Assembly: GCA_002633005.1 (NCBI GenBank) | Contig: NMRA01000045.1 | Coordinates: forward strand, 1,233,552-1,297,551 | Source: Phoronis australis | Lineage: Eukaryota; Animalia; Phoronida | DNA length: 64,000 nucleotides | Direction of reading: 5' to 3' | Shown: positions 31,201-64,000 of the stretch, in pieces | How positions within the stretch are numbered: the stretch's first letter is position 1 | Layout: each line of letters starts with the position of its first letter | The notes under the pieces: generated by a model | The model's database searches: none | What the model was told of the DNA's origin: nothing | What the model saw: the letters and a program-made list of their open reading frames with translations, nothing else | Program-made: the position numbers and the translations under genes

Positions 31201-31534
31201 GCTAATGGCAGCAAGTAACAAGTTGTCCTATTTGACAAACAGCTACCATTTTGCTGACTGACTACTCATGACTGAAGTACTGTTTTCTAGGCTGTATATG
31301 CATGTTTTACTCAACTCACAATCTTGTCTGTCTGTTCTAGGATTATTGCGAGTGTTATTTGACACACTATATGATGAGGACATTATATCAGAAGACGCTT
31401 TCAAACAGTGGGAAGATAGTAAAGACCCAAGTGAACAGGAAGGGAAAGGCACAGCGTCCAAATCTGTTGTCCAGTTCTTCACTTGGTTAAAAGAGGCCGA
31501 CCCAGAGCCAGATGGTGGCGCTGCAACTAGTTGA
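7080..31534 (+). CDS. EIF4G: Eukaryotic translation initiation factor 4 gamma (eIF4G1/3-type), 29 coding exons, about 1,474 aa
   Basis: Manually spliced exons, all GT-AG and phase-consistent: E1 7080-7084, E2 7200-7278, E3 7871-7999, E4 9166-9327, E5 10305-10413, E6 11114-11337, E7 11658-12270, E8 12576-12646, E9 13584-13773, E10 16402-16535, E11 16776-16865, E12 17137-17316, E13 17782-17979, E14 20505-20651, E15 21257-21336, E16 21583-21739, E17 22421-22525, E18 22740-22884, E19 23113-23192, E20 25483-25616, E21 25956-26141, E22 26424-26595, E23 27091-27263, E24 27552-27759, E25 28151-28249, E26 29713-29844, E27 30190-30271, E28 30693-30839, E29 31341-31534 (TGA). Diagnostic motifs: [69 protein letters not shown]1-E2 are less certain, and an exon could be hidden in the N gap. 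Confidence 0.96.
9907..10006. repeat. (CAGTG)n pentanucleotide microsatellite
   Basis: About 20 perfect units; source of the spurious LHCTA/VQCSA ORFs. Confidence 0.97.
11114..11337 (+). CDS. EIF4G: eIF4G exon 6 with PABP-binding motif
   Basis: [22 protein letters not shown] (11203-11268) resembles the human eIF4G1 PABP-binding segment [23 protein letters not shown]. Confidence 0.9.
11658..12270 (+). CDS. EIF4G: eIF4G exon 7, acidic E/P/V/T-rich disordered linker
   Basis: Overlaps ORF 11754-12320; tttag acceptor and G|GTAAGG donor; phases fit the neighbouring exons. Confidence 0.9.
13900..14930. mobile_element. Interspersed non-autonomous repeat (possibly Helentron/HINE-like)
   Basis: Shares TATGCC(A/G)CCATCC, TTCATGAAATTTGGCAC and repeated CTAGTGGC/TATGTTCCTAC units with 19910-20460. 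Related starts occur at 23309 and 61280. Boundaries approximate; family assignment is inference. Confidence 0.5.
16402..16535 (+). CDS. EIF4G: eIF4G exon 10 with canonical eIF4E-binding motif
   Basis: [45 protein letters not shown]; YxxxxLL at 16440-16460; human eIF4G1 has KKRYDREFLLGFQF...KPEGLP. Confidence 0.95.
17782..22884 (+). CDS. EIF4G: eIF4G MIF4G (HEAT-1) domain exons 13-18
   Basis: [18 protein letters not shown]...[18 protein letters not shown]...[14 protein letters not shown]...[19 protein letters not shown]...[23 protein letters not shown]. Confidence 0.95.
18000..19644. mobile_element. Non-autonomous DNA transposon with about 30-bp TIRs and TA flanks
   Basis: Left TA|AGGGCTGTTCCAGCAAAAAACGTATGGGAGG; right CCTCCCATACGGATTTTGCTGGAGCAGCCCT|TA. 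Confidence 0.8.
19910..20460. mobile_element. Second copy of the 13.9-14.9 kb interspersed repeat
   Basis: CAAAACCCTTTGA.GTATGTTCATGAAATTT, TTTTCATAAAATTTGGC and GGTGTCCACCCCT blocks are shared. Confidence 0.55.
21105..21185 (+). ncRNA. SNORD80: Intronic box C/D snoRNA, SNORD80 (U80)/yeast snR60-like, LSU rRNA methylation guide
   Basis: C box ATGATGA at 21117-21123, D' CTGA at 21137-21140 and D CTGA at 21172-21175. Terminal 9-bp stem CAACACAGT/ACTGTGTTG. Guide CTTTCGCCCCTAT is antisense to LSU ATAGGGGCGAAAG and guide CATAGTTCA is antisense to TGAACTATG. The D box lies about 80 nt upstream of the 3' splice site. Confidence 0.88.
22595..22662 (+). ncRNA. SNORD54: Intronic box C/D snoRNA, SNORD54 (U54)-like, SSU rRNA methylation guide
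   Basis: C box variant ATGAGGA at 22600-22606 (as I recall for U54) and D CTGA at 22654-22657, preceded by ATATACGCTATT, antisense to SSU AATAGCGTATAT. About 80 nt upstream of the 3' splice site. Confidence 0.85.
23365..24267. other. Assembly gap (N run)
   Basis: 903 N following the start of a repeat copy ending in (CCGT)n. Confidence 0.99.
26424..28249 (+). CDS. EIF4G: eIF4G MA3 (HEAT-2) domain exons 22-25
   Basis: [25 protein letters not shown]...[22 protein letters not shown]. Confidence 0.9.
29713..31534 (+). CDS. EIF4G: eIF4G W2 (HEAT-3, MNK-binding) domain exons 26-29
   Basis: VFDWIE...[10 protein letters not shown]...[44 protein letters not shown]...[20 protein letters not shown]. 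Confidence 0.93.
30856..30967. repeat. Short inverted repeat (MITE-like hairpin) in the last eIF4G intron
   Basis: ACAGAAAAAAAATTGAATCTAATACTGGAATTTGAAATA ... TATTTCAAATTCTAGTATTAAATTCATTTTTTCTGT. Confidence 0.65.
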
Positions 31535-34389: not shown

Positions 34390-34910
34390 GGTGGGATTTT
34401 ACTTGATGATCGATACAGAGATGAACAGACTGACTTGTGGCACCCCTGTGGCTTGAAAATACGTTGTGTTTGACTCTTCTGTTTTGTAGTCTTGATCCTA
34501 AGCTCACTGTCCATCTTCAGTTCATGATCTTCAGCTAATGTGACATTGAAAAAGATTGAGAGTTATAATACACATATTATATTGTGATTTTCTCAAAACG
34601 TAGTCAACGTGTTGTCTTTAACCGTGACGTCACTTCAACTCGGCACTGAAGTGATTTACTGACACAGGAAATCAACAACATTATAGCATTTCTATTACAA
34701 TTTTAAACTTTTATCACACATACCTCAAAATTGGTCTTACAAAAATATATAAAATATTGCTTTAGGAAAATGAACATTACAAATCCTTTGAACATTTCCT
34801 ACGAATTACTTTTGGTATGTATTAGACTAAACCATCACTGAAGCATATAGACAATGTATTTCTTTAAAAATACTAATTGGTCAAAGTATTGCCCAACGGC
34901 CATTTAAATC

Positions 34911-42567: not shown

Positions 42568-43596
42568 ATGGCTAGCAGTGATGCAGCTTTAGTAGGAATT
42601 CGAGAAGAGCTCACTTGTCCGTTGTGCCTGTTTGTTTTTACTGATCCCAAGACTCTACCTTGCTTACATTCATTTTGTACAAGCTGCATTAGTGATCACA
42701 TTGCTGCTACAGGAAAACATGGAAGATTTGAATGTCCGATATGTAAGACAGACATCATCATACCACCAGGTGGAGTAAGGGGACTGAAGGACAACTTTCA
42801 AATCAATAACATTGCCACGTTACTTCCATCTGAAGAGTGTTCAATGTGCCCTATTCACCCAGATCAAGAGATCACAATGTTCTGTAATGATTGTGAAATG
42901 CCATCATGCACACATTGTATGGTAGACCACAAGGAACATGAAATGGTTCAAACTCATGATATCAACCAACGAAACAACAAAGAAGTTGATCAACTTTTTG
43001 ACAGTGTAACAGCTAAGCTTAATTTTATTGATACTTCTCTTGAACTATTGACTGAACAAAGAGATTTGTGTAACAAGGAGGAACAACGCGTTACTCGTTT
43101 GATTTCTGAACACTTTCAAGAAGCCGAAGCTAGGTTAAGAAAGATGAAGGAGAGTTTGGTGAATGATGCAAAAGCGAAAATGGATGTGTTCCGTGGCCAG
43201 TTAGATGCTGACATAACCAATATGGAAGAAAGGCGTAAAAGGATAAAAGGAGCTGTTAAACATGTCAAAACTTCTCGTGAATTTGCAAGTGTGCATGACA
43301 AGCTTTCTCGACACAAATATTTTGTAAATCGTTTAAGGTTAGTTAATGACCAGTCTATAGAATGCAGCATCAACGAACCAGCTTTTGATGTGCAAACTGA
43401 AGATGTGTCCCTTGGATTAAAAGTAATAGTAAAGTCCAAACACCTGGATCTTAAGCACCCTGAAGATAGAAGTTGGAGCTCAGGCAATATGGAGTTGAGC
43501 ACGTCCGATGATAGTTGTGAAAGCATAGAACATGACACAGCTGGCCAGACATGTCACTTGTCAGATGAAGATGTTCGGTTGTATCAGGTGGTATAA
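42568..43596 (+). CDS. TRIM (RBCC) protein exon: RING-HC, B-box 2, coiled coil; no C-terminal domain of its own
   Basis: ATG at 42568 after a tttcag acceptor. RING CPLC...CLHSFCTSC...CPIC; B-box CPIH...CNDC...CTHC..DHKEH; heptad-rich helix. Ends either at TAA 43594-43596 or at the phase-0 donor CAG|GTGGTA (43588). Confidence 0.93.
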   Translation: MASSDAALVGIREELTCPLCLFVFTDPKTLPCLHSFCTSCISDHIAATGKHGRFECPICKTDIIIPPGGVRGLKDNFQINNIATLLPSEECSMCPIHPDQEITMFCNDCEMPSCTHCMVDHKEHEMVQTHDINQRNNKEVDQLFDSVTAKLNFIDTSLELLTEQRDLCNKEEQRVTRLISEHFQEAEARLRKMKESLVNDAKAKMDVFRGQLDADITNMEERRKRIKGAVKHVKTSREFASVHDKLSRHKYFVNRLRLVNDQSIECSINEPAFDVQTEDVSLGLKVIVKSKHLDLKHPEDRSWSSGNMELSTSDDSCESIEHDTAGQTCHLSDEDVRLYQVV

Positions 43597-46500
43597 AAAC
43601 GTAAAACCTGGTTATATGCAATAGGTCACATGGCCTTAAAGCTGAAATGACTTTGGGGAATGTTAAACATGAAACGGTATATATAATAGATAAGCCAATA
43701 TCTTTCCTTCGGGTATGAGCTATAATACATGTCCATGCACTCATCCAGCCTTAATTTATGGGGCTCTAATCTTTGAGAATGTGGACCTTTTACTAAGATT
43801 CACGGGTACGTTCAGAGCTATGAATTATGAATTCGACGAATTTTGGTAGTTCTTGCCTTTTTAGTGGAGTTTTGTCTCGTCGTCTACTTTTTTCGGAGTT
43901 TTGTTTCTCTGAGGCGGACCTTTTTGCCCACTTCGCCTTTGAGCCCCCCTTTGGGTGCGCGTATGCTGTCATCACTTTTTGTCTTCTGATCAACCTTCGT
44001 CGAAATATTGAGGCTGCTGCTATAAACCTGGCATTCTGTCCAAAAAGTGAACGTTGATTTAGATCACTTACCGCATTAGAATTGATCTCAGTTCGTCCTT
44101 AGTCAGATGAAAAGTGATTTTTTGGCATTGCTCTGCTGTTTTAAGCACTGTTTTAGTTAAGATACTTGGCACAGCTTTGTTTATTAAAGGATCAAATTTC
44201 TTTAGTATGATTTAAGAATGACAGTAGACTATGAGTAATGACATTTAGAAGTAATGTTCCACGTCCGAGGTAGTGTTGTCATGGCTCTTCATTTCTGGAA
44301 ACGTTAGAAAACGAATTGCGCGATTAACCTAGTTGATCGATTCAAGGGTGCTAACACATTTCTGAACGTCTTATCGCGCCTCACTCAGCTTTTTAGTTTT
44401 TGAAACTTTATTCACATCAGAATAACAAATGTCTAAGGAATTTTAGAGAAAAATTGTGATTTCCACGGCACCACACTGTCTCAGTATGAGGCAACTACTC
44501 AACGGATGTGCAGCATTGTGGGTAAATATCGCACTATTAAAGAGGGGGATCTCCTACAATTCTTGGATGTGGCTATTTGTATTTAAAAGAATTAAGAAAT
44601 TTGACTCTTGTTAACAATTCTTCAAAAAGTCTTGTATTTTGATAGCCCCGCATGCTAAATTGGCAAATTAAAAAAATTCTAAAATCGTATTGGAGAACAT
44701 TGCTTTAAGCATAGTATCTGAAAGTTTCATTTGAATCCAGTTAACCGTTTCTCAGATAGGATGTTCCAAAGTTATTCCAAACTGAACATTTTTCCAGTTT
44801 TCCACATAGTTACAACCGATATCATGTAAATTTTTATGAGTCAAGTAAGACGGGATGTGAAATAGACACGATGAGGCAACTGCGGCTGATTTCCAACACA
44901 ACTCTACTTCATCTAACTAAGCGTTGGTTTACGTACTTGAAAGTATGTAATTTCTCTAGTGAATAGTGGAGAGTGCGCCACACTACGCATAAAATTCCTC
45001 TCTGGGTTTATTTTGCTAATGGTATAATCAACTTTACCTGAATGTAATGAAACATTGATCAGACCTTAACCACTTTTAAGTAGTTTCCACTTCTCGGAAG
45101 TTAACAGAAAACAGTGGTGCTCGAGTGCAACTTAAAGTAGGAAAAGACCTGTTATTTAAACGTTAATGTTACAGGAAAGTATGGGTGGTGGTGACAGGAG
45201 GTCTGGCCTGAGAGACTGGTATCCTATGCCTCCTAAGGTCACTGGACTCCCTAATGATAAGTTTGAAGATCTACAGCTCCAGCATGAGGAGAATGAATGG
45301 AAAACAGGAAGCTTGAGAAAGACTGAAGACGACCTGGATGTCCAAAAAACTGAGGTATTTAATTTTTGGCTTTGGTACGTTTTGTCTGTTCTGTTGCCTC
45401 TGATGATGTTGCGTGCCCTAGTCCTGGATATTGAAAAAGTTTGGATTTTCCATTGCTTGCGCTATCCACATTTGGGAAACATGCTTTTTATAACAGTTTT
45501 ATGCACTCCCCAGTTTGCTTCTCGTGTACTTTTGGAACTTAAAATAGTTTGAGGGTGCACCAGAATCGATGCACTGAAACAGGCTACTTGGTGCGAGTGC
45601 GACGATAGAAAAATACCTGTCATGGATAAATACAGATTGGCAAATTTTTGCCCGAAAGATTCCCAAGGCACGCGTCATCCGATTTTACACGTAAACTTAT
45701 TTTTCCACAAGTTACCTGTGATGCCACCGCGTACAACCGTACAGCATTGCCCGTTAAAACAACAGCAGTCAAGTATGACATCCACAATTGTTTTTAGGAG
45801 AGCGAGAAAATCCTCTGTGATGACTATTGTATGCGCTCTGTGATAGCATAGCTCTCTTACCAGGTTGGTACTCATGTCCACTGTTTTTCTTGCAGTATCG
45901 TCAAGTTCTGCCCTCAACGTCTCCCCATGACATGAATAAACAGCCAATGCATCAGAACTTGGGGCCTCCTCAGAATAACCCGCAGGCCATGAATCAGATG
46001 TACTTTCAACAAGGCCGACCTGCTGTAAGTCTTGACAGCTTTCACTTTTGATCAACAACTTTTCACACGTGTGTAATATGATTTGATCATTGAACCTCAC
46101 TTTTTATCTGGCTACGTGTGTGTGGGGGGAGGGTGCATTTAATTTCCGCCAGTGTCCAGGTGGCTGCAGTGCTTTTGCTCGGCCAGGTCCACCCGCCGGC
46201 TAAGACGTCTGATTGGTTCTCGATAACTACTTCCGACTTGAAAGCTATTCAGCCTCCCGTTCACTAACGCTAGGACCTCGCTAAAAAGCAAGACTTCGCG
46301 AGATTACGTGAGATATTGCCGTGCATTTTAAATGAGAACACACGCCAGATGTCTAGCAGAGTAAGTAAAGCCCAGCCAACGTCCTCTCGATATCTTAAAA
46401 AAACGTCTGGCTGAAAGGACCTTTCCCCTCCATCGTCCAATCAGAACGCAAACAGTATGCCACACAATTGCTTTGTTTCTAACCTTCACAAGCGGCGCCA

Positions 46501-49500
46501 TTTTTAGCATTAGCCTGGTAAGAATCGTGTGGCAGCTACCCGTGGGCGCCAGCAAAAGGAGGTGCAACATGAGAACACCGGGACATTACTAACTGTAACA
46601 CGAGTAAACGACTATTTTTGTGAGGGGTGGAAAGTAACGAAAGATCACTACAAGCGTCCTTTTATGAAAACCTAGTTCTGCACTTGTACATTAATATAGA
46701 TGGCCTAATGCATTTTGTTGTATCCTTAGGCCTAGTGCATGGGAGTATCCCCGGGTGTTTAATTTTCTTAGAAAGAAAACTAATTACAACGACAGTTGGA
46801 CTTCTAAAGGGACAATAATCTTACCAGTGTTTACTAACACTTACCCAAAAGTGCATAAACAAAACGAATCTAAAATCTTTTCCCCAGCAATTTGCATGCG
46901 TATTCCATGCGGCTTTTCTGACTTGCGCATCGATCGCCTAGCACTTGTCCTTCACATTTACTTCATCTTCAGTCACCACCATAAATTTTGATGTCGTAGA
47001 TGTCACATTGCTAATATTAATCTAAGGCCTTTCTCTTTACTCAATCCCCAAGATTATCTTCTTTTGGAAGATATATGACAGAAAAGTTGTCCGGAATTTT
47101 CTCCAGAAATTATCCGTGTCAACTTCGTTAACAGACGCTATTTTAATAACTAAATATAGATGTCGCTACCCGTCCGATCTCGGAAAAGTCCATTACGGTG
47201 AAATCATATAAAGTATCACAGGGAGGCGAATTCCAAACCAGGCTCACATGTATATAATGTGGTTGTGCCAGTGACAATAGACAGTTTCGACTACCTTAGC
47301 TCCAAATCATAATATTCAACAAGAAATTTCTTGCTGAAGATGTTTCCTTATGATATCTGGAAGCGATTGGCGCCTGTTGAATCTGTACACTTCAGGATTT
47401 TTTTATTATTCACATACTGCGGGTTTTATGCCAAATTAACTCGCACAACACAAGGCATTTTTGTTAAAAGAGCGGTCTTCTTCGTATATCGCTCGGTTCG
47501 TGAATACTAGGCATTTTAAAGCAAAATCGTGTTTAAGACGTGACGTAAAATTTTAGTTTCTAAAAAGTTTTAGTAAAGTCAGTTGGTGAGTTATTTTGCG
47601 ATGAATGTACCTTTCTTGCACATGAGAATTTGAAAAAAACGTTGTCATGTGACGATAATAAAGACACAATAGTTAGAAGCATACTTTTAGAATCCTCGAT
47701 CGTTCTCCTTTCACAAAAACATATACTTTTAATGGTTGACAAAGCATGTGTTCGATATTTGACTTACAATTGAGATCGTTTATTAAGCTCATAGAATACG
47801 AATTTCGAACGAATTGATTGTTCTCTATAGAACTTGATCCTGACGTATATTGTTGGGAGTGAACCAGCACCACCATTTCTTTGAAGGGTTTCGGCAAATC
47901 TACCACCCCTAGTGGTAATTTAATTTGTGCAGGTGACCAGGACCTCCAGGAATCTGTTGTAATGCTGTTTCTGATCGTAAATCCCAACTCCGCTTACAGG
48001 TCTGCAGTAAACAGCCCAGGCCACCAGCCACCCGCCAGCACAGGCCCGCAATGAACATGAATAACCAGGTCAGTCAGCAGCAGTACCAAACAATGCAGGT
48101 CTCCTGGCCGCCGGGTAATCAGAACTACATGGCTCAGCCGCAGCCGCAAACCTATATGATGGTAGGTATCTCGCTATTCACGCGACTTTCTGTTGATAAC
48201 AGTGCCATTGACGTGGGTGTATTAATGACCATTCCATGCAACTGGATTGTCGTTTCAACGAACCTATCAAAAATTCAATTTTCGTCTCTGCATCTGCTTA
48301 TGAATGGACAATTTTAGCTGGGAAATGCCGAGAGAAATCGATGTCATATAGACCACCAAACGCAAAAAAAACAAAGTCAAATTTTGCTCTCCCGACTAAC
48401 TACAACAGTGCTAACATAAAAGAGTACTTGGTTTATAAAGGATTTGACCTTGTTAGTAAATGCTCAAATATAAGATTAAATATTCTTATGTAAAAATAGT
48501 TCTTGTTATGCTATTATCTTTATGGTGGCTATTTGCATTACCTTTAGAAGTAACTATGAAACGGGATTTACAGAATGTGTTATTTTATCCAGAGGGTGGA
48601 CATGCTTGAATGTAGCAAGTTTTGTAGTCGTCCCTCACTCTTTGACATATGTTTTGTGTTAATGTTTGTGTCTTCTGTTGATAGGTTTTCCAAAGACCAG
48701 CATTGATGAAGTAGCTTGTTAAGTTTAGTACATTTCCAATGTACTAAACTATAGCATTGTGTTCTGATATATTTGGATACCTTAATCCAAAAAATCTAAC
48801 GTCTTGCAAGGTTCACCGTCTTGTCATAGCGTCTATTGCCATCCATTGCGTCCAAGTGTTTTCTGTTTCAGTATAACCCTGGGCAGGCCATGAACGTGCA
48901 ACAGTCACAGTATGTTAGTCAGCCACAGAACTATTCCATGGCCACCACACCGCCTTACTATAACGCCCCGCAGCCTCGAGGTAACACTATTTGAGCTACT
49001 GAGTTATGTAAACAAGGTTCCTGTGAGCACAGTAGGTTGAAACTGTCCTTTGCACGCTAATCACTCGTGTTTTAAAAATGCAACTTAGGAATATTAGTAA
49101 CTCATAGTTACTAGTATTCTCAACAAGGTTCCCGTTAACAGAATTGATTTAAAATTTCCTTTGTGAGTCACCATGATTTAAAAATGCTACCTATGGAATG
49201 GTATCAATACTATTAGTATTTAAAAAACAAGTTTTATCAGCTGTGTCATCGACCCTTGGCGAACAACACTGCATGGTGTAGGTTATGTGCTCTCACGAGG
49301 CGCATCATTACGACAAAGATCATTTTCCCACATTCCTGGTTTACACTTTCGTAGTTAGTGTCATTTAAGGTAACTTGGGTATACCAAAGACTGTGCTCTG
49401 GCGTAAATCAAAGTCCAATTTTGTTTCTTGTCACCCAACCAACAGTAATGAAGCCAACCGACTCAAAAACATTTTTAATGAACAATTATTTCAATTTCAC

Positions 49501-52500
49501 AAATTGAAGCATTAAGTACTAGTCCACGAGAACACCAACCATGAGCGGCAAGGTGGGGGTCAGCCGATTTTCACCAAATTTGGCACATATGTAGTCCTAT
49601 GGGATCTATAAACAGCGGTGAAATATTTCCTCAAAATATTGTGTTTTTCTAAAGTTATAGGTTCAAACACATTTTACGGTTTCGCAGCCATGTTTTCACG
49701 GTATAAAAACTGTCCAGTTTTAACTGTTCATATTTTTCCTTGAATGAAAGCTATTGATTTATTATTCACTTGGCATTGTTTAGTGGTGCCTATAGATTGT
49801 TACACAGATGTCTTGAAACACGATTCCGATTTACCGCCCTCATTTAGTAGTTTTACTACACTGCCCCCCGTTATGCCATTTTGAGGTTGTGTTCAGTACA
49901 CTGCTGTACCAAATCTGCCCCCACTGCTATGAGAATGAAACTTAGCCAAAATGTTGACAAAACATGTTACTTTCATTGCATAAAATAAAAACTTTGTCAG
50001 CCAGTTTATTAGTTATACATTTTGGCACCTCAAATGTACTAAAATGAGAAATTGTCATATATCTGAGATCGATGCGTGAGCACCGTAAAATCCGATTGTC
50101 CTTCATATTTTTCGATATTTTGCAACAAGTTAGTTCCTCCTGAATGTTTTGAACGTTTTACTACTGATCACTTTGGGCTATAGTACCCCTAAATACCACA
50201 CATGGCTCCATTTTGTAAAAAGCCGATTATGTCCTCCGCAGTGAACAGGGTTAGACATGAACTCGACAAATGTAGGTTATTTTGATTTACAGTTGTTTTA
50301 CTTTGCAATTTCCTCATGGGTATTTCTTCACACATATTCAAGTCAGATTTTCTGTTGATCAAATGTTCATGCAATGCATTGTAATATCAAATGAATGATA
50401 AGTTTGGTGGCATGACCGCAGTTTTTCCCACGACTTAAAACAAAAGACCGCAGAAATTTTCCTGACGAAATACCGGGTTTGCAGTTCTCTAAAAACATTC
50501 GAATGACAAGACAAACTCCACCACTGTCTGTGGCAACTCGTCGCATGTTTTTCGCCCATCGGTCCTATCATTGTTTTCCATTGTTGTGTCACTGTTGGAT
50601 ATAACAACACAGGTCGCATGGATATAGAACCTTGCGTACATCAGACCGTTGCCGATAAGTGCTCGTCATTATATCTTTATTATAACAATGAAGATGCTAA
50701 TCTATTGTTCTCTATGCGACCAGGTTTCCCGTGGATGACCACAGAAGAGGAATCCCAAAGTATCCACAAACAATGACCACGCACCTTAGTAACTATTACC
50801 GCGCACACGAATCCTTTCCGTGGAACCTAAACACCAAATTTTTATATCCGTGTATTGTGTTGTATTGCTCATGGTACGGGTTCAGACTCTGTTGTATTAA
50901 GATTCCAATCCCCAACCCAATCTGTAGTTTGAGTAAAATTTCAAGACAATGCAGGTTTATGGATTTATTCTCCTTAAAATGAAGAGTAAAAATCAAATTC
51001 TGCACAGGTTTTTTAAAAGTAATCACTTATTGGAAGATCACACATCTAAAAAATAAAACAATGTTTGACAATTTTATTCATTATCTTATTTGAAAATTGC
51101 CTACCTCACAGACAACTCATCTAAGTTGAAAATATTCCTTGTGAAAAAATATAAAATACCAACCAGAGACTTGTGTACTACAAAATATGTTTTCGTAATA
51201 CAATGCAAAGATAACTGTACAGTCAAAAGTGCAAATGTTATGACTCTAATAAAAAATTGCCTTCTAGATCTTTTCAACACTCTAATTGCTACAGGACAGA
51301 GTCAACCACACAAAGCTCATAAAGTCAGGGAATTACATTTAAGGTGATGTAGTCTCACTGCGAAAAAGTGATTTCGCAATATCGCTGACAACACTGGAAA
51401 TCTCTTCTTCACAAACTTGAGGTAGCTGTATTTACCACATCAATGTTCTTATCAAAACTAACCACCACAAAATGAAAAATTGGCTTGTCGGTTCCAATTA
51501 GGCAGCATTTTACAATGAAATGGTCATGAAAAAATACTTTTGCAACATGGTTTGCATTACAATTGCCCTACGATTACAGTTGTACATACATACTAGACCA
51601 GTAACAAAATTACCCATGGGAACCATAAAATGGTCAATTCGCCAAAAAAACAAGGAGCCACCAGAGCTAATGTGCCAATACTTTTCAGTACTGCAACAAA
51701 AAATCATTTGAAGTGGACATAAACTCGCCTAAAATCACATAAAACAACTTTTGATTTAGACATTTTACCATCACGAAATAGGTATTACTTCCAGGTCACT
51801 TTTGAGCAATTTCAGAACTTTGAAAGATCTGGCAATATGCAATTGCTAGAGACCAGACTAATAGTGTGTGATTTTATACACACAGCATGGTCTCAAGGAA
51901 TAGCAAACTGTCAATTCGCTATAATTCCAGAAATCACTTCCCATCTGGATAAGGAACAAACTGAGCAAATTTTATAGAGGTAAATGGTCTAAATCAAAAC
52001 TTATTACCTCCTGGACAGAATATGGGTTTACAACCCAGGCAGAAAGATAAGTTAACAAAACCAGCCTAACTGCAACAGGGTCTCAAATTTCAGTAATATA
52101 TACCCATTTACAAACAAAAATCTATAATGGTAAATAAAATGCGGAAACATAAATTCAGATCAATTACGCATCTTCAAGGAAAATGAATAGTACAGTGGTC
52201 AGAAATCATCTAAATGTGATGGCGACACTGAGAAATCCTGTCAGACCAAAAAATCCAGTGGTTAAAAAAAATGAACAATGTACCATTACCATGTGGCCCA
52301 GGATCATAATCCGTGCCTGGACAAAAATTCAGTCTTAGACTAGGTAAATTTTAGATTTGTGCTGTTCACACAAGCAGTTCTGGTGCAAACAAAGCTTGCG
52401 ACAACACACAAGCCTACTTCCCTACACAGCTGTGCTGATACAATAATGCCCCCACTGGATTTAGCAGATCAGCCAGAGTATTTACAGGTCCAGCCACTGT

Positions 52501-54922
52501 ACTGTTTCCTCCCTTTGAATTTTTACAATGCTACATCCTTGACAATCGCAGATTGCCTCTTTCAATGCATACTCCACTTCCTCTGTCCCAGTTTCCCCAC
52601 ATTTGCTGAGAGTGGCCTATCTCAACAAATTACTTTGGACCTGTTGTGGTATAAGCCAGTAATCTTTGGCAAATACTTTTTCCCCAACTCGTTCCTCAAG
52701 CTACAAATTCTCTTTGACATATCTTCTGGGAGTAGACTTTTCGGCCTCTCTCTAGCCCCCTCACTTAGTTGTCCAGAAGGGTACCTTCTTGCTGGTTGTG
52801 AACTTTTCCATACCCAACCTTTACTAATAATCGGCAAGTCTCCAACTTCAGCAGAAGCCACTTCTTCAGCATAAGCCTTTCCTGATTCCTAAAATTGTAT
52901 TAATGAAAAATTAAACATATTAAATTTAATGTGGCCATTTCGGCTCACAAAATATGAATACCAAGCTAAAGTGAAGGCACCAATATTTTTGACGGCTTTA
53001 GCATGTTTAATTAACTTCATAATCGCAGAAAATCATTGGTAGACAAAACATACTCCCTAGTCTCTAAAAGTAGTTCATGGGCAGAAGTCATGTTACACAT
53101 TTGGTGGTTGTTATGAAAAGTTATGATGACTACCTATTTTCTATGCCAATGTATACATGTAGTTGCATAAACATCAACACATTTGAATAAGATATGATTA
53201 AGCAATAAGGCCCAAGTTATAAGCAATCACGGTGTGTCAATAAAAGTATTTTTGCATGAATGACGTGCTTCTAAAAATATTCCTCAGGGTCAGACCCTGG
53301 AGTTTAGTGATTCCTACCTGAGCTCACACGAAGCAGGACGTTGAACCTTGACTTAACGTCTTTGGTCATTTTTCAGACCTCTATCAGGCTCTATCAGATT
53401 TCTCCTCTAGTGTGCAGTGGATGTTCTCAGTGTCTTTGGCGACAGCAATATATCTCGAGTGTTGTAACGATGATTCGGGCAAGTGAATCTAATACGGTAG
53501 ATTATGTAGCTCCTGCTGCACACCTGCCTCCGAGGCAGACACTGAGACAGACTACTTCTCAGGAGGACACGTTCCACCTCCACATCAGCTCCACGTACTC
53601 TTATAAGGTGCTCAAATGTCTCGCTCTATACCTTGTGCATTTCCCAAGAGTTTCCAAAGTTGTTTCTCTCCGCAATTTGTAGAAATACCACATTCGATGC
53701 GACTGGCAGTGCCAGATAAATAGATAAATTCGCAAACCCGCACTTTAGGTCAGCCATCATTCAACTAACGCATTGTAAGCTTTAGTTTGGTATTCAGACG
53801 AATTGAATGAACAAATTTAGTATAATTTCATATTTTAGTGGGAAATGCTAGTGTCTTTAAAATTAATTAAAAACATTTAAGCAAACCAATTCTTTTAATT
53901 GTTGTATTATACCACGGCATATTAATGCGTAGAAACGGCGCACAACTAGTGACTGGTTTAACATGACAAATACACATACGCGGTCTGAAAATAGTGAAAT
54001 TCAGACACCTATTACCAAGCCTGCCTGAAGGGCTGACAAAGTTTTTATTGTATTAATTTCAAGGGCATGGAGTCTTCTACATGTCCATGTTATTATTTTT
54101 AGTTTTCTCGCGGGGGCAGCTTCGCTATAAGGGTACAACTTACTGCTGGTTTTTCACAAGAAGGAAATGTACCTCCACGGAAACAGTTCCAGTGTTACCA
54201 TGGTAACAGATATTGCAGTGTCGGTGCCGTTTTTACTGACATTGGTCATGAACCTATCATGTGATATCAAAATTGTTCAGAAACGATTCTGTTTGAAGCA
54301 GAAACTGGAGTAGAAAATTTGGTCAAAAATGACTCATTCCACACCAAGAAATTGCCTCATTTTGCCCCCAAGAACACTTCCCTTGTATCTCCTAAACCAC
54401 CAAACTTTGTGGTGTCATACTTCACCCAATTTCTCTCATCCCTAATGTGATTTATCAGACTAAACATGGATCTGAATGGCTGACCCCCCACCTTGCCGCT
54501 TGTTGGCTGTACAGTGGTCGGTGGATCCGTGGACTGATACTTAATCACTCCAAAATGAAAAGTGAAAAGAACATGTTACTTACCTACCAGTCTCGGAGGA
54601 ATGACTGCAGGACGACTAGGGGAAACAAATAAATACAAGAACAGCATAATCGTGTTGCTATTGTGAGTCTTTGTGTACAAAACCTCGACTCTTTTTTCCA
54701 GTTTACTATTCACAAATGCCAGTACAGACTAAAACAGTCAGACCTCCATCACAGCCAGCATACCAACCACCACGATACCAAGTGCCACAGAAGCGGGAAC
54801 GCAAACCTATTCTGGTCATCAACCCAGAGACGGGGAAGAGTATCAACGATGACCTGGCGTCTACCACCAGCAGCACAAGTAGCGCAAGTAGCTCAAGGAA
54901 CAGCACTCCGCCTGGTGTTTAG
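42568..54922 (+). CDS. Predicted chimeric TRIM-eIF4G(N-terminal/PABP-binding) gene, locus A, about 606 aa
   Basis: Join 42568-43587, 45175-45354 (E12 copy), 45896-46024 (E3 copy), 48000-48161 (E4 copy), 48872-48980 (E5 copy) and 54702-54922 (E6 copy, TAG). All splice sites are intact, phases are compatible and there are no internal stops. The TRIM donor is weak. Confidence 0.6.
45175..45354 (+). CDS. Duplicated eIF4G exon 12
   Basis: ESMGGGDRRSGLRDWYPMPPKV...ENEWKTGSLRKTEDDLDVQKTE versus 17137-17316; same length and splice sites; 20/60 aa differ. Confidence 0.85.
45896..46024 (+). CDS. Duplicated eIF4G exon 3
   Basis: 4 nt differences from 7871-7999 (3 synonymous, 1 Q>H). Confidence 0.88.
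48000..48161 (+). CDS. Duplicated eIF4G exon 4
   Basis: Same length and phase as 9166-9327; [37 protein letters not shown]. Confidence 0.88.
48872..48980 (+). CDS. Duplicated eIF4G exon 5
   Basis: 4 nt differences from 10305-10413 (3 synonymous, 1 Q>R). Confidence 0.88.
49516..54540. mobile_element. About 5-kb TTAA-targeting DNA transposon (Kolobok-like?) inserted in the duplicated intron
   Basis: TTAA|GTACTAGTCCACG...GCGGCAAGGTGGGGGTCAGCC on the left; GGCTGACCCCCCACCTTGCCGC...CGTGGACTGATAC|TTAA on the right. The parental intron has a single TTAA at 10942-10945. A related terminus occurs at 57621-57650. Confidence 0.75.
54702..54922 (+). CDS. Duplicated eIF4G exon 6 with PABP-binding motif, now terminal
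   Basis: [22 protein letters not shown] at 54791-54856; new stop TAG at 54920-54922; the original GTAAGA donor is not preserved. Confidence 0.85.
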
Positions 54923-57900
54923 CAATGAATGGACTACCGCCGTCGAAAGTGAAGATTCAGTTTGCACATTGGTTTCAATGAAGATTCACAATATATGTCC
55001 ACCACATGCCATGAGACGCCATTCTGACCTAGCGATCTCAAGTCCGCCCAGACGGAAAGAGTCGGGAAATTAACGATCTGCAAACCATACCAGTGTTTAC
55101 ACATTCTAACAAACATCGCATTTCGGGCATTTGTCAGCAACAGTTAAAAATATGTTGGCTGCGATCTTTCCTGTGTATCATTGAATTGTATATTATTAAA
55201 ACTAAGCTATCCGGTAATAACATTTCGCGGTCTTTGAACTGTACTTTAAAATTAGTTCTAGTATTACTTTGATATAGTGGAATCGACAAATAATGAAGAA
55301 TTTAGCGACGTAATCATCAGCTGTTAAAACCGGTGTTCAAGCTTTTCACTAGACGTGAAGCCTGTACTATTGACTTACCGTACTTTTTCATTGTGTGCTT
55401 TCCTCTTTGCCATGATACCGAGTAATCTTTTATATCAACTGACAAGCCACGTGAGTTCAGCCTGCAATCAATTAGAGTTTGCATCTATTGAGGGCATCAA
55501 ACCTTCCACCATTGTCGTAAATGCTTGAATTCGGTCACCAATAGTTTTAGTGTGATATTTTAAATATTTTTTCTTCACTTTGTGTACTTGTAATGAATAA
55601 TGAAAGCAGAAATTAAAAAATGACATAAATGTAAGTGGGGTCAAGGAAGAGCAGCTGCTCCTGGGCGCTAGCAAAAAGGGGCGGCCAAGAGGGCCCCAGA
55701 TGAGCGCCCGGGGGGCACCACTGAAACACGTGGAAAGCGGAGGTGGCCGGGGGCGCCAGATACATATCGGAAGGGTGACTGTTAAGTAAGTGTGGATAAA
55801 GGAACAAACAAGTATCTACCAAAGGGGGGAGCATGCAACTGATAACCTGGGAGGGGGCAGGTCACACTGCTACCGACCGGCGGGGGCTCAACGAGCTTTT
55901 ATCGACCGGCGAGGGGTGCAATGTTTGTCCCTGCCTTACGTCACTTCGTTTCCGAATTGCACTACCTCGGCTGGTAACCTTATTGCATGTCATGAAATTA
56001 TTAGGGTATGGGTGCAATACGTGCCCCGCCCCAGCTTCCTATCACCCCAGTTTCATGACAATTATCCAAACATAACATTGAAATTATTGAGGAGCAATTG
56101 AAGTCAATATTTTTACCATACTTTAGATGAATAAGAGATCACTTGAAATGTTGAAATGCGCATTCAAATCAGGTGGTAACTTTGAATGGTAAAAAGTCTG
56201 TCCAAATTGCCTCGTTTTAGAGTTGTTCTCCAAATTCTGATGCTGATGGAGTCTGGAAGCGAGACAAGTCGAAACATTGCCGCAAGTGGTCTGATTACTT
56301 CTGCAGATTGTAATCTATCGTGTGTACCAAAATGCAATGTGCGTTCGTTCGCCGCGGCCCTCATGTCCTCGTGGGCAGTTCGGGTGAAAGTGTGCGGCCC
56401 GCAGTCGTTATTCGACCCAGACTTCGCTCGTGCTTTACGACTGAAAGCGTTAAAGCCGAATAGAAATCGGTTTGTAGGTAACGTGAGCTCTGAAGAAGTT
56501 AAACGCTCGTAAGTTGACGCATAAGCGGATTTAGGGGGTGGNGCAGAGGGCCCACCCCCCTTCGCTGCCACAAAAAAATAAAACAGCAAGAGCGTAGGGA
56601 AATGTTGAGTTTATTAATTATCCCCGGTAATTAAAATTATCAGGCTGAAACAAGATTTAAATGTGTGCAGTTTTAGGGTTTGGGGGGGGCTCAGATCCAA
56701 TTTCAAGTGTCAAATTCGGAAATTCGGAACACGGCGCAATCGTAACGGAAGTATGACTAAGTATAGACTCTCCCGCGATATCTCAGGCGACCGGCAGTGG
56801 CACTGGGCACTACGACTCCGTTTTCGTCGTCTGCTCCACTGAGCAACGAAGAAAATTAGGACCTATTTCATTTTTTAAAGAAAATGGGATCTTTGTGATG
56901 ATGAAAAAACAGAAGCTGCTGGTAAGATGCCAATTTTAAGTAATCGAAGCCTTAGTGAATCACTCAGAAACTCATAATTCTTTCTTAATCTTTGTCAAAC
57001 CTTAACTTAAGACTATTTCCAAAGCAATCGCGTCATTATTGCCAACACAAAAAACGGATTTGATCTTTTGGGCAATTGAAGACTATTTTAAATACAACAA
57101 ATTTGTTACGAACTGATTGCGCAAAATATAAAACATGTAATAAGCATTACAAAAAGAAGTTTTCGCGCGCAAACGCTGTGGACCATAATCAAGTAGGTCT
57201 CTTAGCATCATAATATTACGAGTTAAATTGTTGTGGTGCAGTGGTAAAGCACTCGCGCTCTATCCGCCAGTGCCGGGAGTTCGGGTCTGTAGCGCTTGCA
57301 GTTTTTCCTGTTTGACACTTTCTCCGTTTTTTTTTGTTTTTTTTTTGCCTTTTTTTCTTGGATAACACTTCGGGAATCAAGCAAAATGCTAGATTTTTAG
57401 AGGAAAAACAGAAAAATTTACTGGAAGGGAAGGGGGGCAAACCCCCCTCCCTACCTCCCCCCATTCTGTGCTACTGCGCTGCGCATACAATCGTGCTTTG
57501 AGCAAATGTTTACAGACAAAATATTGGGCCCCCTTGTGATATCCTAGTTTCGCCACTGTAACGCTCTCACTTTTGGGTCGTAATATCACGCTCGTAATTT
57601 TAGCAAAATAGTTTTTAAATTTAAGTACTAGTCTACGAGACCACCAGCCAATAAATTAATATGTAGCCAGATGATGGTTTCGGTGGTGCAAAATACGATC
57701 TACAAAATACGAGTGTACAACTGTCTCAGAGTTCACGCGACCTAAAGACCAATTTCGCATTGGCTGTAATGATTGCGTTAATGACCAACGAAGTCTCGCT
57801 CGTGCAGTGTTGTAATGCTGGATGTCAGGGATTTATCGGAGTGGGTCTTCAAATAAACTGACGGCCATCTGCATACTTATATTCCTTGACCTTGAACCTC

Positions 57901-60896
57901 GGTCAACGGCATCTATTGGTACATATGTGAACTACAATAACAGCCGATACTGCAGCTCGTAATTAAGTGGATTCCAGCAGCCACGCATGCCTTGGTCTTG
58001 CTTAATTAGACGGAATAGGTGCATGAATCACTTCTTTAGCAGACATGTGCTGTGACGTCGTACGTACTGTTTTCAGTGAGTCACCGACAAGTAGCGCTGT
58101 ACATAATGTTTTCTTAGAATTCCCCAGGCTTGGAAATCCCAGCGATCAACGAGGAAGCGGCGAATGATTGTGAGGTGGACTGACCAACAGCAAGGTTAAA
58201 GAAGTTTTCAGTGGGTTGAACTGTTTTTCCACTAGCTACATAATTCATCGATGCACCAGCAAACCTTGGAGTTCATAGGTTGACGGAAACATGTGGGAAC
58301 TTACGCCTCGTAACGAAACTCGGTCGATCTGAAAACAAAGCCGTCGCAACTGTTGTGCGTGAACTTGGAATCTTGCTTGAACTCAGGTTCCTGTATGCTT
58401 GAACTTGGAATTGAATATTCATTTGGACAATTAGGTGAAATTTTTGTTCAATGTAAAGACTTTTTGTAATTACTGGCCTCTGCCTGATCACCCATTTTCT
58501 CCTTCAGCATCATAACTTGTATCAGTAAAGAATCGGAGGAATATGTGAGTGGTTAAATCAATTTTTGCCGTTTGGTGAACAAGGTCGCCAATAGTTGAAC
58601 CAGGATTGATTAAGATTGCTAAGTAAACAACAACATATTGATCGTCGTCATTTTGACTTATACACCGCTGTACAGTGTACCTGTACGGTCTGTGTCACCT
58701 GAGTACTGGACTATTGGGAACTTTTGTCTTGATAATGGTTTAGACAATAAACTGCAACGTCGATCATATCATACATGTATATTCATATATGCCCTGATTT
58801 TAAAGCTCGTACTCATATTTTGGCCAAAAACAAATGTGATTAAAATTTACTTTATTTTAATAACATGTAATTTGATTTGGAACCGGCAGTTCAAATTTTT
58901 ATCAGCGTGAAAGTGATTATTTGGGCGGGCTTGTCAAGATTTCTCGTGTTTATCAAGTTCACGCATATGCAATCTTGTGATAAAGCAGGATTCCAAGTAC
59001 AGGCTCAGCATAAGAAGTAGCTGGTTCCCTGCTTGTCCGCTAATGGTCTACCTCCTTGTAGACACGCAGGGAACCAGCGAGTTGCAACAAAAGCGGACGG
59101 GTGAGACGTAAGAGTTAGTTCGTTTATAATACTTATTCTTCACATCTGAAACTTTTTCTTTGAGGTGCCAAAATTGTGTTTCATAGGGATGTTCTCGAAT
59201 CATAATCCTATGCTAAGTGGAAAAGCCGACGTTTATTTGATTGAATTTCAATAGGCGATCGAATGTGGCGAAACTTCATGTCGACCCTATCCGGGGTCGC
59301 AGCCGCTACTGAGAGAGAGGAAATAAATAATAAAATGCGGATTTTTTTAACGAAATCTAAGGATTTTGCATGTCCGACAAGTATGCAATTGCAGTACACA
59401 ATTGGAGGCTGAAACGACGGCAAAATTGCGATCTCTAGCTTTCAAGACCGTGACCTAAACGAAGTTGTGTTAAAATCTAACCGCCATGCTCAATTGAAAT
59501 CACGGTGAAGAGTGTTTAACTTGTAAATTCAAGGAAAACAGAATATGTAATTATAAGAAATTGATGGCGTTTGATTGTGATTTGGTCAGCCATTTAATTA
59601 ATTGTTTTATTTATATGTGTTTATTATGTTATTATTGTTATTATTGTTATTGTATAATGGTCTAATAAATTAATTAAATAGGCCTACATCGAGATCGCTC
59701 GCTGGCCTCGCCTGTCCGCTACTTCGACTGTTCGACTTTCGTTATGAGGTGAAAATTCCCTTATGCATGTTCCCGTCAACCTATTCCTATATTAAAATTA
59801 TACTCTTCTTTGTTTTTCTTCTTGAAGCACCAAAATTCATCAAGAAAACACTCAGTAGTGGACGTCACCTGGAGACACAATGTTGTTATTTAGAATTTAA
59901 AATTAAAAAGTGTATACAGAAAAAATGCATAATGCAGGTTAAAAACAGCTAAGTAAACTTAGTTTATGTCTGCGAATTATACAAGTGGCTGGTCCTGAAG
60001 CGTCAAAGGGTTCTTACACGAGTACCTATCTGTACGTTGTTTAAGAGCAGAACGATGATCATTCTAAGGACTATACAAGTACGCGAACATTAAGGAGAAG
60101 TACGAGTACTTTAAACAAATGTAGATTAAGCTCATTTCTACGTCAGTGCGGAACACTGCAGACTGTATTTGTTTAAGAAACCCTTTGGCGCTTCTTAAGG
60201 ACGCTTGTGTATGAACGCTATTTCGTAAACAACCATTTCTTGTTGTCGTTTTTTGTTCCCTGCCTCACGAGATGAACCTGTGCGTGGAGTAGTAGGCCTG
60301 AGAGGGGGAAACTGGTAGTTATCAAGGTACTGGCCTAATTCCGCTCGAACAAGCAACTGGCAAGCTCGGGTGCACTATCGGGCATTTGCTGAGTTCACTG
60401 GTAACCGGCCTAACGTTTCAAGCATCTCGTTCATCTCATTTGTGTCTCTTGCCAACGAGATTTGGCGTCCCCATCTCCCATTTAGCCACCTGAGAATTTT
60501 GCCACGTAGCATTTGGCAAGTTGAAGTTATGCGAAGCGTCAATCCCTGATGACATAGATGAATCCAGACAAAATATTGATAATGATTTACGAATTTAACT
60601 CGTTTTGCTCCCTGGCTGTTACTGATAGCTCTCATTAGAAAATTGTGATGCTGAGTCTAAGCCTCATTCTCAGTTCAGCAACGATGCATTTTGCTTCTAA
60701 GTTGATTCTAACAGTGTGACCTAACAGTGTGACAAGGGAGGAATTTACACATAGTGGAGTTTCATGGTTCAGTTCTCAGTTTTACACCTGACTGATTTAC
60801 TTGTAGGTTGACTGATTTTGGATGATGCTATTTTCATCGGTCAATTTTCGTGTATCAATCTCATCCTCATTCCACTGCTTTTCAGTTTCTGCAGCC

Positions 60897-61307
60897 ATGG
60901 CCAGCAACGCTTCAGCTTTGTCTGCACCTTTGTTAGGAATTCAGCGAGAAGAGATGACTTGCGCGATATGTTTGTCGGTTTTTACTGATCCGAAGGCTCT
61001 TTCGTGCCTGCATTCGTTTTGTACAAGCTGCATTGTTGACCATATTGGTAATACAAGTAGGCATGAAAAGATCGATTGTCCGATATGCAAGAAAGAGACC
61101 ATCATACCGCCAGCTGTAATGGGACTGAAGCTGCCTGCTCTTTACTCAGGGAAAGACGAACACATTTCGGTTGGTAACACGGAGCTGAAAGCCCCTGTAG
61201 ACACTACCAATCAGGTAGCAGGCCGTAAGGACAAGAAAGACTTGAAATATAAACACACGGAAGGTAGAGAAAACAGCTTTTTATGCGCCCACATTATTTC
61301 ACATATT

Positions 61308-61359
<52 letters not shown>

Positions 61360-63722
61360 NTTGTTTGGCTGTCCGCTTGATATTTCAAAAAACCCTGGTC
61401 GGATATCGATGAAATTTGGCACAAAGGTGTAGGACATCAGTAGAGCTGTTTGTGATACTTTTCCATCTGCCCTTCCCCAGGGGTCAGGGGAGTGGATTCG
61501 CCCACGTCATTTGTGTTTTATGGTGGATTCGACCACGTCATTTGTGTTTTATGGTGGATTCGCCCACGTCATTTGTGTTTTATGGTGGATTCGACCACTG
61601 CAGAGTCTCGTAGTGCCCATTTGTGCACTCTTACTGAAAGTCCTGAAAAGATTATTTATTTCTGACACGCTTTTGTAGCAAGGAAACCAAATTTGTAAGT
61701 TTTATGTGAAAAAAATGTGTTCCGAGAAAAATGCGGCGATCTCCGTTTGAAATAACGATTGGCAAAAAATGCGATCATGTAATTATGAAAATTTGGACTT
61801 TACTTTTGTGCACATAATAAAATAAATTCTCAGGTCATCAACGAATTTTAAAATCCATAATTACTTTCAAGGCTTTTCTATATGCGTTAATACTTAAACT
61901 GATCCTTGGTAAAGATAAACATCGTTTTCTTTGTGGCAAAGCTCTGTATACAGTCTTGTAAAATGTTTCTCGTGATGCTAAAATTTAGTAAGAGGGAGCG
62001 CCGGTGGATGGGCGACAGGGGAGAGGTATGTCGTTTCCACCCCCGTTGGCGTTGACAGATGGCTCCCGCTCAATTCTCTTCATGGTTCGATTTGTCCATG
62101 CTATGTAGTACTGTAATGAGCTTTTCCAATCTTGGAGAAAATTCTCATGAGAGTGGGATGAAGGTTGACCCAGTCACAATAGTGGAGGTAACAAACGTAT
62201 GTGTCCAAAGTTAGAATTCCGTTCCAGCTTTACTTTTTCATATTCTGATACAGGGATTTACTTTTTAAACGTTCCACTTCACTATATATCAACTCAAAGT
62301 TCAAACGGCTGTAGTTTGCATGCTGGGTTCCGATGATTATTTGTTCTCTTCCATTTTATAATATTGTTACCTCTATTTAAGTTACTTTTCACCATGATAT
62401 TACATGTTTGTACTAATTGTTGGCGTATGTTCAATAGCTCTTGTGTTGTGGATTTTGGGTTCATTGGTGAGACAAGTATTTTGCACAACTTTGCCCCTTC
62501 CCTTTGTGACATTTTCTGTTGATTTAATCGATGCTCTTTGATGACAGACGTTGCCAATTCCTTTGAGATTTGTTGTTTTACGACAGTACCACCAGAATAA
62601 TATTCAATTTCTAATGATATATAAGTTTATTATATTTCAGGAATGTCAATACCTTCATAAGTTGAAGTGACTACGAACTCACATTTTGCCGACGATATTG
62701 ACTTCTGATTTAGACCACTTGTCGCTATTACATGGGACTCGAGTAATTTGTGACAATTTGTTTTTGAGTGCGCGGCAAGACTTATAGAAGCTATCAGTTT
62801 TATCCAAGCCCCGAAGTCACCTATTTTGAGTGAACAATTTGAGACTATGCAATTTTTTATATCAAGTGATTTAAATCAAAAGTTGTCGGGTTATTGTGGT
62901 AAAAGAGGACTTGACAGGTTTTTTAGTTAATACACTCAAAACCACCATTTACCTCGCTTTGACAAATGACTACATTGTCAGCGTCATAAAACCTCTCTTG
63001 GCAGCGCGTATCACAACCGTGAATTCTGCTGTATCTGAAAAACCGTAGACCCGCGACTTCCGTTGAACGTTTTTTTAGCTCCACGGACACGAGTGAGGAG
63101 TATGGAGGTACACAGCACCAGTGTGTCATGTCCACAAACATGCGAGTTTCTTGTACAAACTTGTGCCATATCCGCGCTTCTCTGATGTCCCAGGAAACGT
63201 GAAAAGAGTCTCAACGTGGTCAACTATCAAGTTGTCACAACCACCTCGCCAATCTTCATTACACCACAAAACTTGGGAAAACGCGCAGCATTATCAAATG
63301 ACCTTTCACCCTAAACACAATGGAGAATGACTATAGTGCTGTGATTGCTTGTCCCGATTTTACGTGGTATATATCGACCAATAAGTGATTGTAACTTGAG
63401 ATCAGCTAATTAGCATATCGTTAGATACTGTTTGCAGGTGTACTAATTTGACAGTTGGTTGACTAGTGGGGATGTTTTTTGGTGATTTTAATATGAAAAT
63501 GGCGATTTGATTACTTAAACGGTTTTCTTCTATGAAAGACGCATTTATCACTCTTTTGCCTTAGAGTGGTACTCTTCGTTGTTTTCAGAATCACGGAGCC
63601 CAGTTGATCATGAAAACAAAAAGTCATACGATCGGGAATTTTTGTTGAGTTTACAGTTTGTCGTCAAGTCGTTGAAGAAACCTGATGGCTTACCTGAGCT
63701 CCCTGAGATTATTTTAGATCAG
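60897..63722 (+). CDS. Chimeric RING-eIF4G(eIF4E-binding) gene, locus B; continues past the window end
   Basis: Exon 60897-61263 encodes an intact RING-HC (CAIC...CLHSFCTSC...CPIC) fused in frame to the eIF4G E9 copy (...ELKAPVDTTNQVAGRKDKKDLKYKHTE), with a phase-1 donor. Exon 63589-63722 encodes ESRSPVDHENKKSYDREFLLSLQFVVKSLKKPDGLPELPEIILDQ (E10 copy). 63723-64000 matches the parental intron 16536-16775. Confidence 0.8.
61318..61359. repeat. (TG)n microsatellite inside an interspersed repeat copy
   Basis: About 21 TG units. Confidence 0.95.
61492..61598. repeat. 31-bp tandem repeat, about 3.4 copies
   Basis: Unit GTGGATTCG(C/A)CCACGTCATTTGTGTTTTATG. Confidence 0.9.
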
Positions 63723-64000
63723 GTAAGTTATATGAGAGCTTATGTATAGCCGAAAATGGTTTAAACTTGTCTTGGGCAGCTGTGAGTAAATGGCCACTCA
63801 AAATGCACTAGTTTTCTAATTGGTCGATATCGGTGTCACACTTGGCTAATTGTGAATAGATCGTCAAAATTAAAGGGTCGGTACTAGAATTAGTAAGACG
63901 TAAAGGATACGATGGTAGCCGATTGTTTACGCAATCTGATAATTCACTGCGTGATACATGTATGGTACCCACAGGCTGTCATGGCAATCAATACTTTCTT

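Follow-up and report, generated by a model that had tools for sequence, protein, structure and literature searches.

The window analysed here is a stretch of 64,000 nucleotides (nt) of Phoronis australis DNA (assembly GCA_002633005.1, contig NMRA01000045.1, positions 1,233,552 to 1,297,551, forward strand) that contains the gene of the translation factor eIF4G and, downstream of it, two RING exons followed by copies of exons from the N-terminal third of eIF4G. Judged from its DNA, this locus is a real, young and selected chimera and a variant of TRIM domain capture. The two resulting genes, termed here A and B, may encode young, low-abundance chimeric RING ligases in which a captured eIF4G motif serves as docking bait, a reading that is plausible and still tentative. 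The original prediction, drawn from the letters alone, had described a tandem pair of RING/TRIM-eIF4G fusion genes. The chimeric arrangement is present in the DNA and half confirmed in RNA, and the account of A in its assembled form was overstated.

Structure of the two chimeric genes

All features are on the plus strand unless stated otherwise. Gene A begins with RING-A (42568..43596), a single exon that encodes a RING-HC domain, a B-box and a coiled coil in 342 amino acids (aa). The RING matches PF00097 (E 2.4e-8) and the B-box matches PF00643 (E 2e-6, residues 91-127), and an AlphaFold monomer model (mean predicted local distance difference test score, pLDDT, 78) predicts the coiled coil as a long helix at residues 129-239 and another at 244-261. 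By these three defining domains, A is classed as a TRIM gene with the RBCC architecture (RING, B-box, coiled coil). Pfam shows no C-terminal domain beyond the coiled coil. In the Atlas clusters the exon is of the TRIM2/3-like type; its neighbours there are mostly molluscan or chordate clusters, which implies no taxonomic placement. A phase-0 donor follows position 43587 and is weak, with a score of 4.7 against 3.4-11.1 for 23 parental donors (leave-one-out). Two codons past it lies the exon's own stop (TAA 43594-96). The predicted combination of RING exons at 42568 and 60897 with intron-containing eIF4G exon copies, intact splice sites and open frames is found in the DNA, except that RING-A as assembled appears to stop before the eIF4G pieces.

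The parental exons are labelled a, b, c, d (PABP motif), e, f, x (eIF4E motif), y and g (the last one before MIF4G), and the copies bear a prime. In A, the first captured exon is g' (45175..45354), which has 80% nt identity to its parent, is eroded at conserved residues (A41E, P44T) and sits ahead of a', out of parental order. It is followed by a' (45896..46024; 97% identity to the first mapped eIF4G exon), by the Q/P-rich copies b' (48000..48161; 92%) and c' (48872..48980; 96%), and by the terminal exon d' (54702..54922), in which the parental donor is lost and the frame ends in a TAG. Joined by coordinates, the exons of A give an open frame of 606 aa up to this codon. The motif KRERK of d' (54791-54805) is kept when aligned with homologues, and the available text of one source describes it as the PABPC1-binding motif (PMC4174440). 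No match of d' to the PDB was found at E 10. Gene A had been predicted to take the Q/P-rich N-terminus and the PABP-binding motif of eIF4G, which applies to a' through d' and fails for g', a pre-MIF4G exon. No MIF4G match lies beyond 31.6 kb in the window, and without this core A does not qualify by sequence as an eIF4G paralogue.

In gene B, the RING-B exon (60897..61263) encodes a RING-HC domain (60960-61088) and then f', the 3' half of exon f from eIF4G, with the parental phase-1 donor kept. The fusion lies within one exon, in frame in the DNA, at about 61128-61130; the AAG at the switch point occurs in both sources, with five bases at this point common to RING-A and exon f. The two RINGs are related, as predicted, and intact, each with a Pfam match and eight of eight zinc ligands. 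Homology of RING-B to RING-A stops at RING-A residue 74 and continues as exon f, so that the B-box and coiled coil are missing; the label RING/TRIM, initially given to both genes, suits A, and B is better described from its sequence as TRIM-derived and not a TRIM. The next exon, x' (63589..63722), is a copy of the eIF4E-binding exon and holds YDREFLL (63627-63647) with the downstream auxiliary segment. It matches the human eIF4E-bound eIF4G1 peptide in PDB 5T46 (E 7e-11 over 42 residues), which bears out the expectation that B takes the eIF4E-binding motif; the PF21140 match (E 0.009) is under the curated cut-off of that family. By this sequence match x' carries the canonical YxxxxLΦ motif and the auxiliary segment of eIF4E-interacting proteins. 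The exons of B joined by coordinates are open over at least 167 aa. A copy of the x-y intron (63723..64000) then runs to the window edge, where 63998 corresponds to parent 16773, and the edge cuts B 2-3 nt before the next exon (y, which starts at 16776 in the parent). Gene B thus extends outside the window, and the claim that neither gene includes the MIF4G core holds for A alone, which ends in its TAG.

Origin of the arrangement

Self-BLAST and local alignments place the source of the copies at 7675..17518, a segment of about 9.8 kb with exons a to g, which ends 264 nt short of the first MIF4G exon. In the self-comparison, introns are included throughout the copies, which run as g', a', b', c', d', f' (3' half of f), x' and finally the x-y intron as far as the edge; a retroposition origin is ruled out by these copied introns. 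Homology 3' of g' ends at parent 17518, and homology 5' of a' begins at parent 7675; the 148 nt that separate the two in the copy are unassigned. From these alignments, 45543..45691 is read as the tail-to-head junction of the 9.8-kb segment, which would fit either a circular-DNA origin or a tandem duplication. Non-coding divergence is similar across all duplicated pieces (0.26-0.37), including the DNA upstream of RING-A and RING-B, so that the duplication events appear to be of similar age.

The simplest history would comprise three steps. A copy of the eIF4G segment of about 9.8 kb, including a tail-to-head junction, would have been placed behind a TRIM2/3-like RBCC exon. The captured unit of RBCC and permuted eIF4G segment would then have been duplicated. 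Complementary deletions would have left A with the RBCC and g, a, b, c and d, and B with the RING fused inside exon f and then x.

A wrong parse or an artefact would offer another account: a'-d' and f'-x' could be a collinear eIF4G paralogue split by RING-B, B could reach MIF4G beyond the window, or the array could be collapsed or mis-joined. The parental order of a', b', c', d', f' and x', the cut at the window edge and a difference of about 5-6% between most RING-A reads and the assembly are in its favour. However, the copies have diverged by 20-30% from the parent in introns and so are not haplotype duplicates, a non-parental junction from g' to a' occurs in the RNA of three runs, d' ends in a stop without a donor, and the stretch from d' to RING-B shows no trace of exon e (its score of 36 is within the null range, which reaches 44). 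This account is held to be very improbable.

Transcripts of the chimeric genes

RNA was taken from three raw-read runs under the same species label (X1-X3, about 18-19% of each read) and from a contig set (X4), a run whose RNA nature is only a guess. Counts are given in the order X1/X2/X3, the joints are those among the ones listed (15 of 39 in a first mapping, 8 in a second), and the strand was set by parent-type eIF4G reads. Both RING bins are transcribed in the sense direction only; RING-A has a sense depth of about 14-21 in X1 and X2 and of 1-4 in X3 at 94% likeness.

The non-parental junction of g' with a' (45354→45896, GT-AG) is covered by 2/2/11 reads (15 in total), so the permuted exon order is real in RNA. 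Its counts track the depth of RING-B and not that of RING-A across the three runs. The predicted junction 48980/54702 between c' and d' (GT-AG) is also present, with 8/3/0 reads, which are assigned to the copy type by the base they carry at 48978, that of the copy; the parental d differs at 13 of its first 74 nt. At the junction of a' with b', 6/7/2 copy-type reads stand against 33/16/0 of the parent type, and those of b' with c' (24/25/0) are a mixture of parent and copy. Where the parent is well covered (a' to b' in X1 and X2), copy-type reads are several-fold fewer than parent-type ones. A third start of a b-type exon (46024→48005) was seen in four X2 reads of neither the parental nor the window-copy type; further paralogues, copies or alleles may contribute to the g'-a' and b-type reads.

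The RNA of RING-A contains at least three haplotypes, about 5-6% apart, and most RING-A reads are variants and not of the assembly type. One X4 contig (1189 nt, 94% identical to RING-A with 58 differences and no gaps) departs from the reference at 43588 and bears 25 nt that match g' from 45247, where the parent differs at 7 of the 25 positions. This contig suggests that a RING-A variant is spliced to a diverged, G-starting g-type exon.

Selection on the copied exons

All seven copied exons (g', a', b', c', d', f' and x') are open in frame, and 12 splice sites are kept together with their phases. No frameshift was found in them, compared with about 13 expected on the copy branch from the flanking introns (67 frameshift-size indels in 2476 aligned nt). 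In neutral simulations, all frames and splice sites stayed intact in none of 20000 runs at the intron indel rate and in none of 20000 at one third of it. The intact fraction was 0.075% at the third rate with half the branch and 1.1% without indels and with half the branch. Intron indel rates may overstate those of exons, and for a' and c' part of the effect could come from gene conversion. By these simulations, the copied reading frame is judged to have been kept by selection throughout.

In x', one of 12 changes falls on the 15 most conserved positions, versus 4.1 expected (P 0.027); at a looser conservation threshold the numbers are 3 and 5.7 (P 0.064). Exons a' and c' have one replacement each versus 10-12 expected by the intron clock, which gene conversion could also explain. 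Selection on motif function is hinted at by x' of B alone.

Proposed function and alternatives

In the docking reading, the captured motif, eIF4E-binding in B and PABP-binding in A, would bind its usual partner on messenger ribonucleoproteins. The RING would recruit an E2 and ubiquitinate this partner or its neighbours, an action that would be catalytic rather than sequestering. We infer translation of the fusions, binding by the motifs and E3 activity from sequence, and B appears on the same basis to be a stronger candidate than A for kept motif function. The translational shut-off by sequestration that was first suggested is disfavoured by the low abundance of the copies and by the need for both motifs on one chain in the human fragment discussed below. 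Sequestration seems unlikely because the copy-type a'-b' reads number 6 and 7 versus 33 and 16 of the parent in X1 and X2.

A number of results weigh against the docking reading. The joint of RING-A with g' (43587→45175), on which the predicted fusion A depends, is not among the 8 joints listed for X1-X3 at 85% likeness. Sense depth past the donor at 43587 is 9.4/6.9/0.8, close to the number of reference-type reads at 43583 (6 of 24, 4 of 11 and 1 of 7), and in X1 and X2 the greater part of that intron is covered. In X1 the depth just upstream of g' is 7.4, and the g'-a' intron is almost empty. Because of the read-through past the donor, the assembled RING-A allele appears to retain the intron and to stop at 43594, so that it probably makes mostly the 342-aa RBCC protein; variant alleles or paralogues are the probable source of the fused form of A. 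The splice evidence from X4 is one contig, in which the rest of a 158-nt tail is unaligned at 85%. Gene B is transcribed weakly, with a sense depth of 1.7/1.8/4.8 and an antisense depth of 0 in the bin 60686-61300, values that describe this 615-nt bin only, and its splice from f' to x' (61263→63589), which would link the RING to the eIF4E-motif exon, is predicted. The pairwise ratio of nonsynonymous to synonymous substitution rates (dN/dS) is 0.50 over 334 codons, which is the value for a neutral copy of a fully constrained parent (likelihood-ratio test, p 0.99). For this reason a ratio of 0.5 was not accepted as showing that purifying selection acts on the copies, the residues of which are estimated to drift at a near-neutral rate. 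Conservation of the motif region of d' is not significant (P 0.21-0.23), and g' has lost conserved residues.

These same results could mean that the tails are simply tolerated. The RING and TRIM parts would then be functional, and the eIF4G pieces would be captured linker or tail exons with idle motifs, their frame kept by past or present translation; in the assembled allele of A they would have fallen into the 3' untranslated region. Substitutions that fit a neutral copy, the erosion of g', the P values of d', the read-through of RING-A to its stop with intron coverage and the low expression all agree with tolerated tails, and repeated eIF4G motif exons in database proteins imply that local part-duplications of eIF4G are not rare. 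Yet x' spares its conserved positions, a' and c' have far fewer replacements than expected (gene conversion being possible too), and both motifs survive, one per locus. This account, with its corollary for A, is considered rather doubtful.

The pieces could alternatively act as integrated decoys that bait viral proteins which bind or cut the N-terminal third of eIF4G, with the RING ubiquitinating the viral protein or signalling. According to the available text of bioRxiv 10.64898/2026.04.06.716749, enteroviral 2A cleavage frees a motif-bearing, MIF4G-less part, and the captured segment corresponds to it. Fast protein change with the frame kept is also in favour of decoys: the X4 contig differs from RING-A by 24 replacement and 4 silent changes among the 28 codons shown; the presence of at least three RING-A haplotypes and of the third b-type exon start points the same way. 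However, 24 of 28 is well above strong constraint and not above the neutral expectation (P 0.19), only about half of the differences are displayed, and no virus that infects this host is known here. Decoys are judged unlikely.

Parental gene and surroundings

The parental eIF4G (7871..31531) is a complete and intact animal gene within the window, with about 24 coding exons mapped by tblastn with four full-length homologues and by Pfam (MIF4G from 17782, W2 at the end of the gene). Exon mapping starts at 7871. Exon d with the PABP motif lies at 11114-11337 and exon x with the eIF4E motif at 16402-16535. Exon d has two in-frame candidate acceptors, 11114 and 11136, both retained in d', which is joined in RNA at the upstream one (54702). 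An assembly gap of 903 N (23365-24267) lies inside the gene between the mapped exons 23201 and 25486, and a small exon could hide there. In fish, eIF4G-like predictions (Sinocyclocheilus and two Sebastes species) have repeated eIF4E-motif or pre-MIF4G segments, a hint that this eIF4G region was part-duplicated independently there, or that the annotation is at fault.

The c'-d' intron holds an insertion of about 5 kb (49518-54541) that the parent lacks; it has inverted repeats of 16 nt (49544-49559 and 54485-54500) and no long open reading frame (ORF). RNA depth over it is high on both strands, and an intron at 52887-53317 is spliced on the minus strand (8/4/11 reads). It is probably a transcribed non-autonomous DNA element. 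On the minus strand at 33869-34516, an open stretch of 216 codons resembles by eye the C-terminal end of an ORF of the long interspersed nuclear element (LINE) type, with no convincing Pfam match.

Comparison with known systems

No counterpart was met in the searches made. In a cross-search at E 0.01, eIF4G queries matched 0 of 153 RING proteins, and RING queries 0 of 120 eIF4G proteins, in small samples that are not a census. A search for proteins of near length to RING-A gave three matches, and one for longer proteins with x' kept none of five candidates; no match was from the same species. The best 120 of 3866 matches to the MIF4G exon (identity at most 82%) included none with a RING Pfam domain and none from the same species. 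Among the best 150 of 5826 HMMER matches to RING-B none was from the same species, and in none did the best stretch extend to the end of f'. Two metagenome scans gave no match. A RING/TRIM-eIF4G fusion was not found in a non-exhaustive set of titles and abstract openings. Capture of translation-factor linear motifs by TRIM genes was thus not found in the searches made, and gain of folded domains is already known.

TRIM5-cyclophilin A is a TRIM that gained a new module by fusion, and TRIM-cyclophilin fusions reportedly act on capsids. The available texts describe TRIM-MATH fusions of Branchiostoma as TRIM domain capture (PMC3503706) and exon shuffling of B30.2 in finTRIM genes (PMC2657112). As in these systems, a lineage-specific TRIM would have gained a C-terminal module from an unrelated host gene, with tandem copies and fast change. 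Unlike in them, what was captured is a set of disordered linear-motif exons from a core translation factor and not a folded domain, the capture took place at the DNA level with introns and a permuted exon order, and B lost its B-box and coiled coil. The TRIM2/3-like invertebrate RBCC expansions in the Atlas share the RING/RBCC sequence type and the single-exon RBCC; they differ from A, where no C-terminal Pfam domain follows the coiled coil and eIF4G exons stand instead.

The locus displays several stages of gene birth together, namely capture, permutation, complementary loss and an allele reverting to read-through, so that one can test directly on it whether function, or frame only, is what preserves new TRIM tails. 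If B indeed binds and ubiquitinates eIF4E, it would be a natural form of the engineered eIF4E degrader and also a new control of cap-dependent translation.

Other RING proteins act on the same partners by different means. According to the available text, MKRN1 is a RING ligase that reaches PABP via a short PAM2 motif (PMC6805484). Gene A would likewise be a RING ligase directed to PABP by a short linear motif, its docking being predicted, although PAM2 is described as metazoan-conserved and as binding the MLLE domain, whereas A would use eIF4G's own PABP site, recently acquired, and the genes are unrelated. The RINGs of PML (TRIM19) and arenavirus Z are reported, in the text available, to bind eIF4E via the RING itself (PMC3509680). 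Gene B is predicted to act on eIF4E as well, and in contrast to them it would bind via its captured YxxxxLΦ motif.

The N-terminal cleavage fragment of human eIF4G, 2A-cpN, represses only with both motifs, as far as the available text states (bioRxiv 10.64898/2026.04.06.716749). The duplicated segment has the same motif content as described for this fragment, the eIF4E and PABP sites without MIF4G; in Phoronis the motifs are split over two loci and fused to RINGs, while 2A-cpN is reported to need both on one chain. It is conceivable, with low probability, that the part-chimeras are natural translation-factor degraders or sensors, in which the MIF4G-less third known as a protease-released fragment was grafted onto a TRIM ligase and later split between a RING aimed at eIF4E and a TRIM aimed at PABP.

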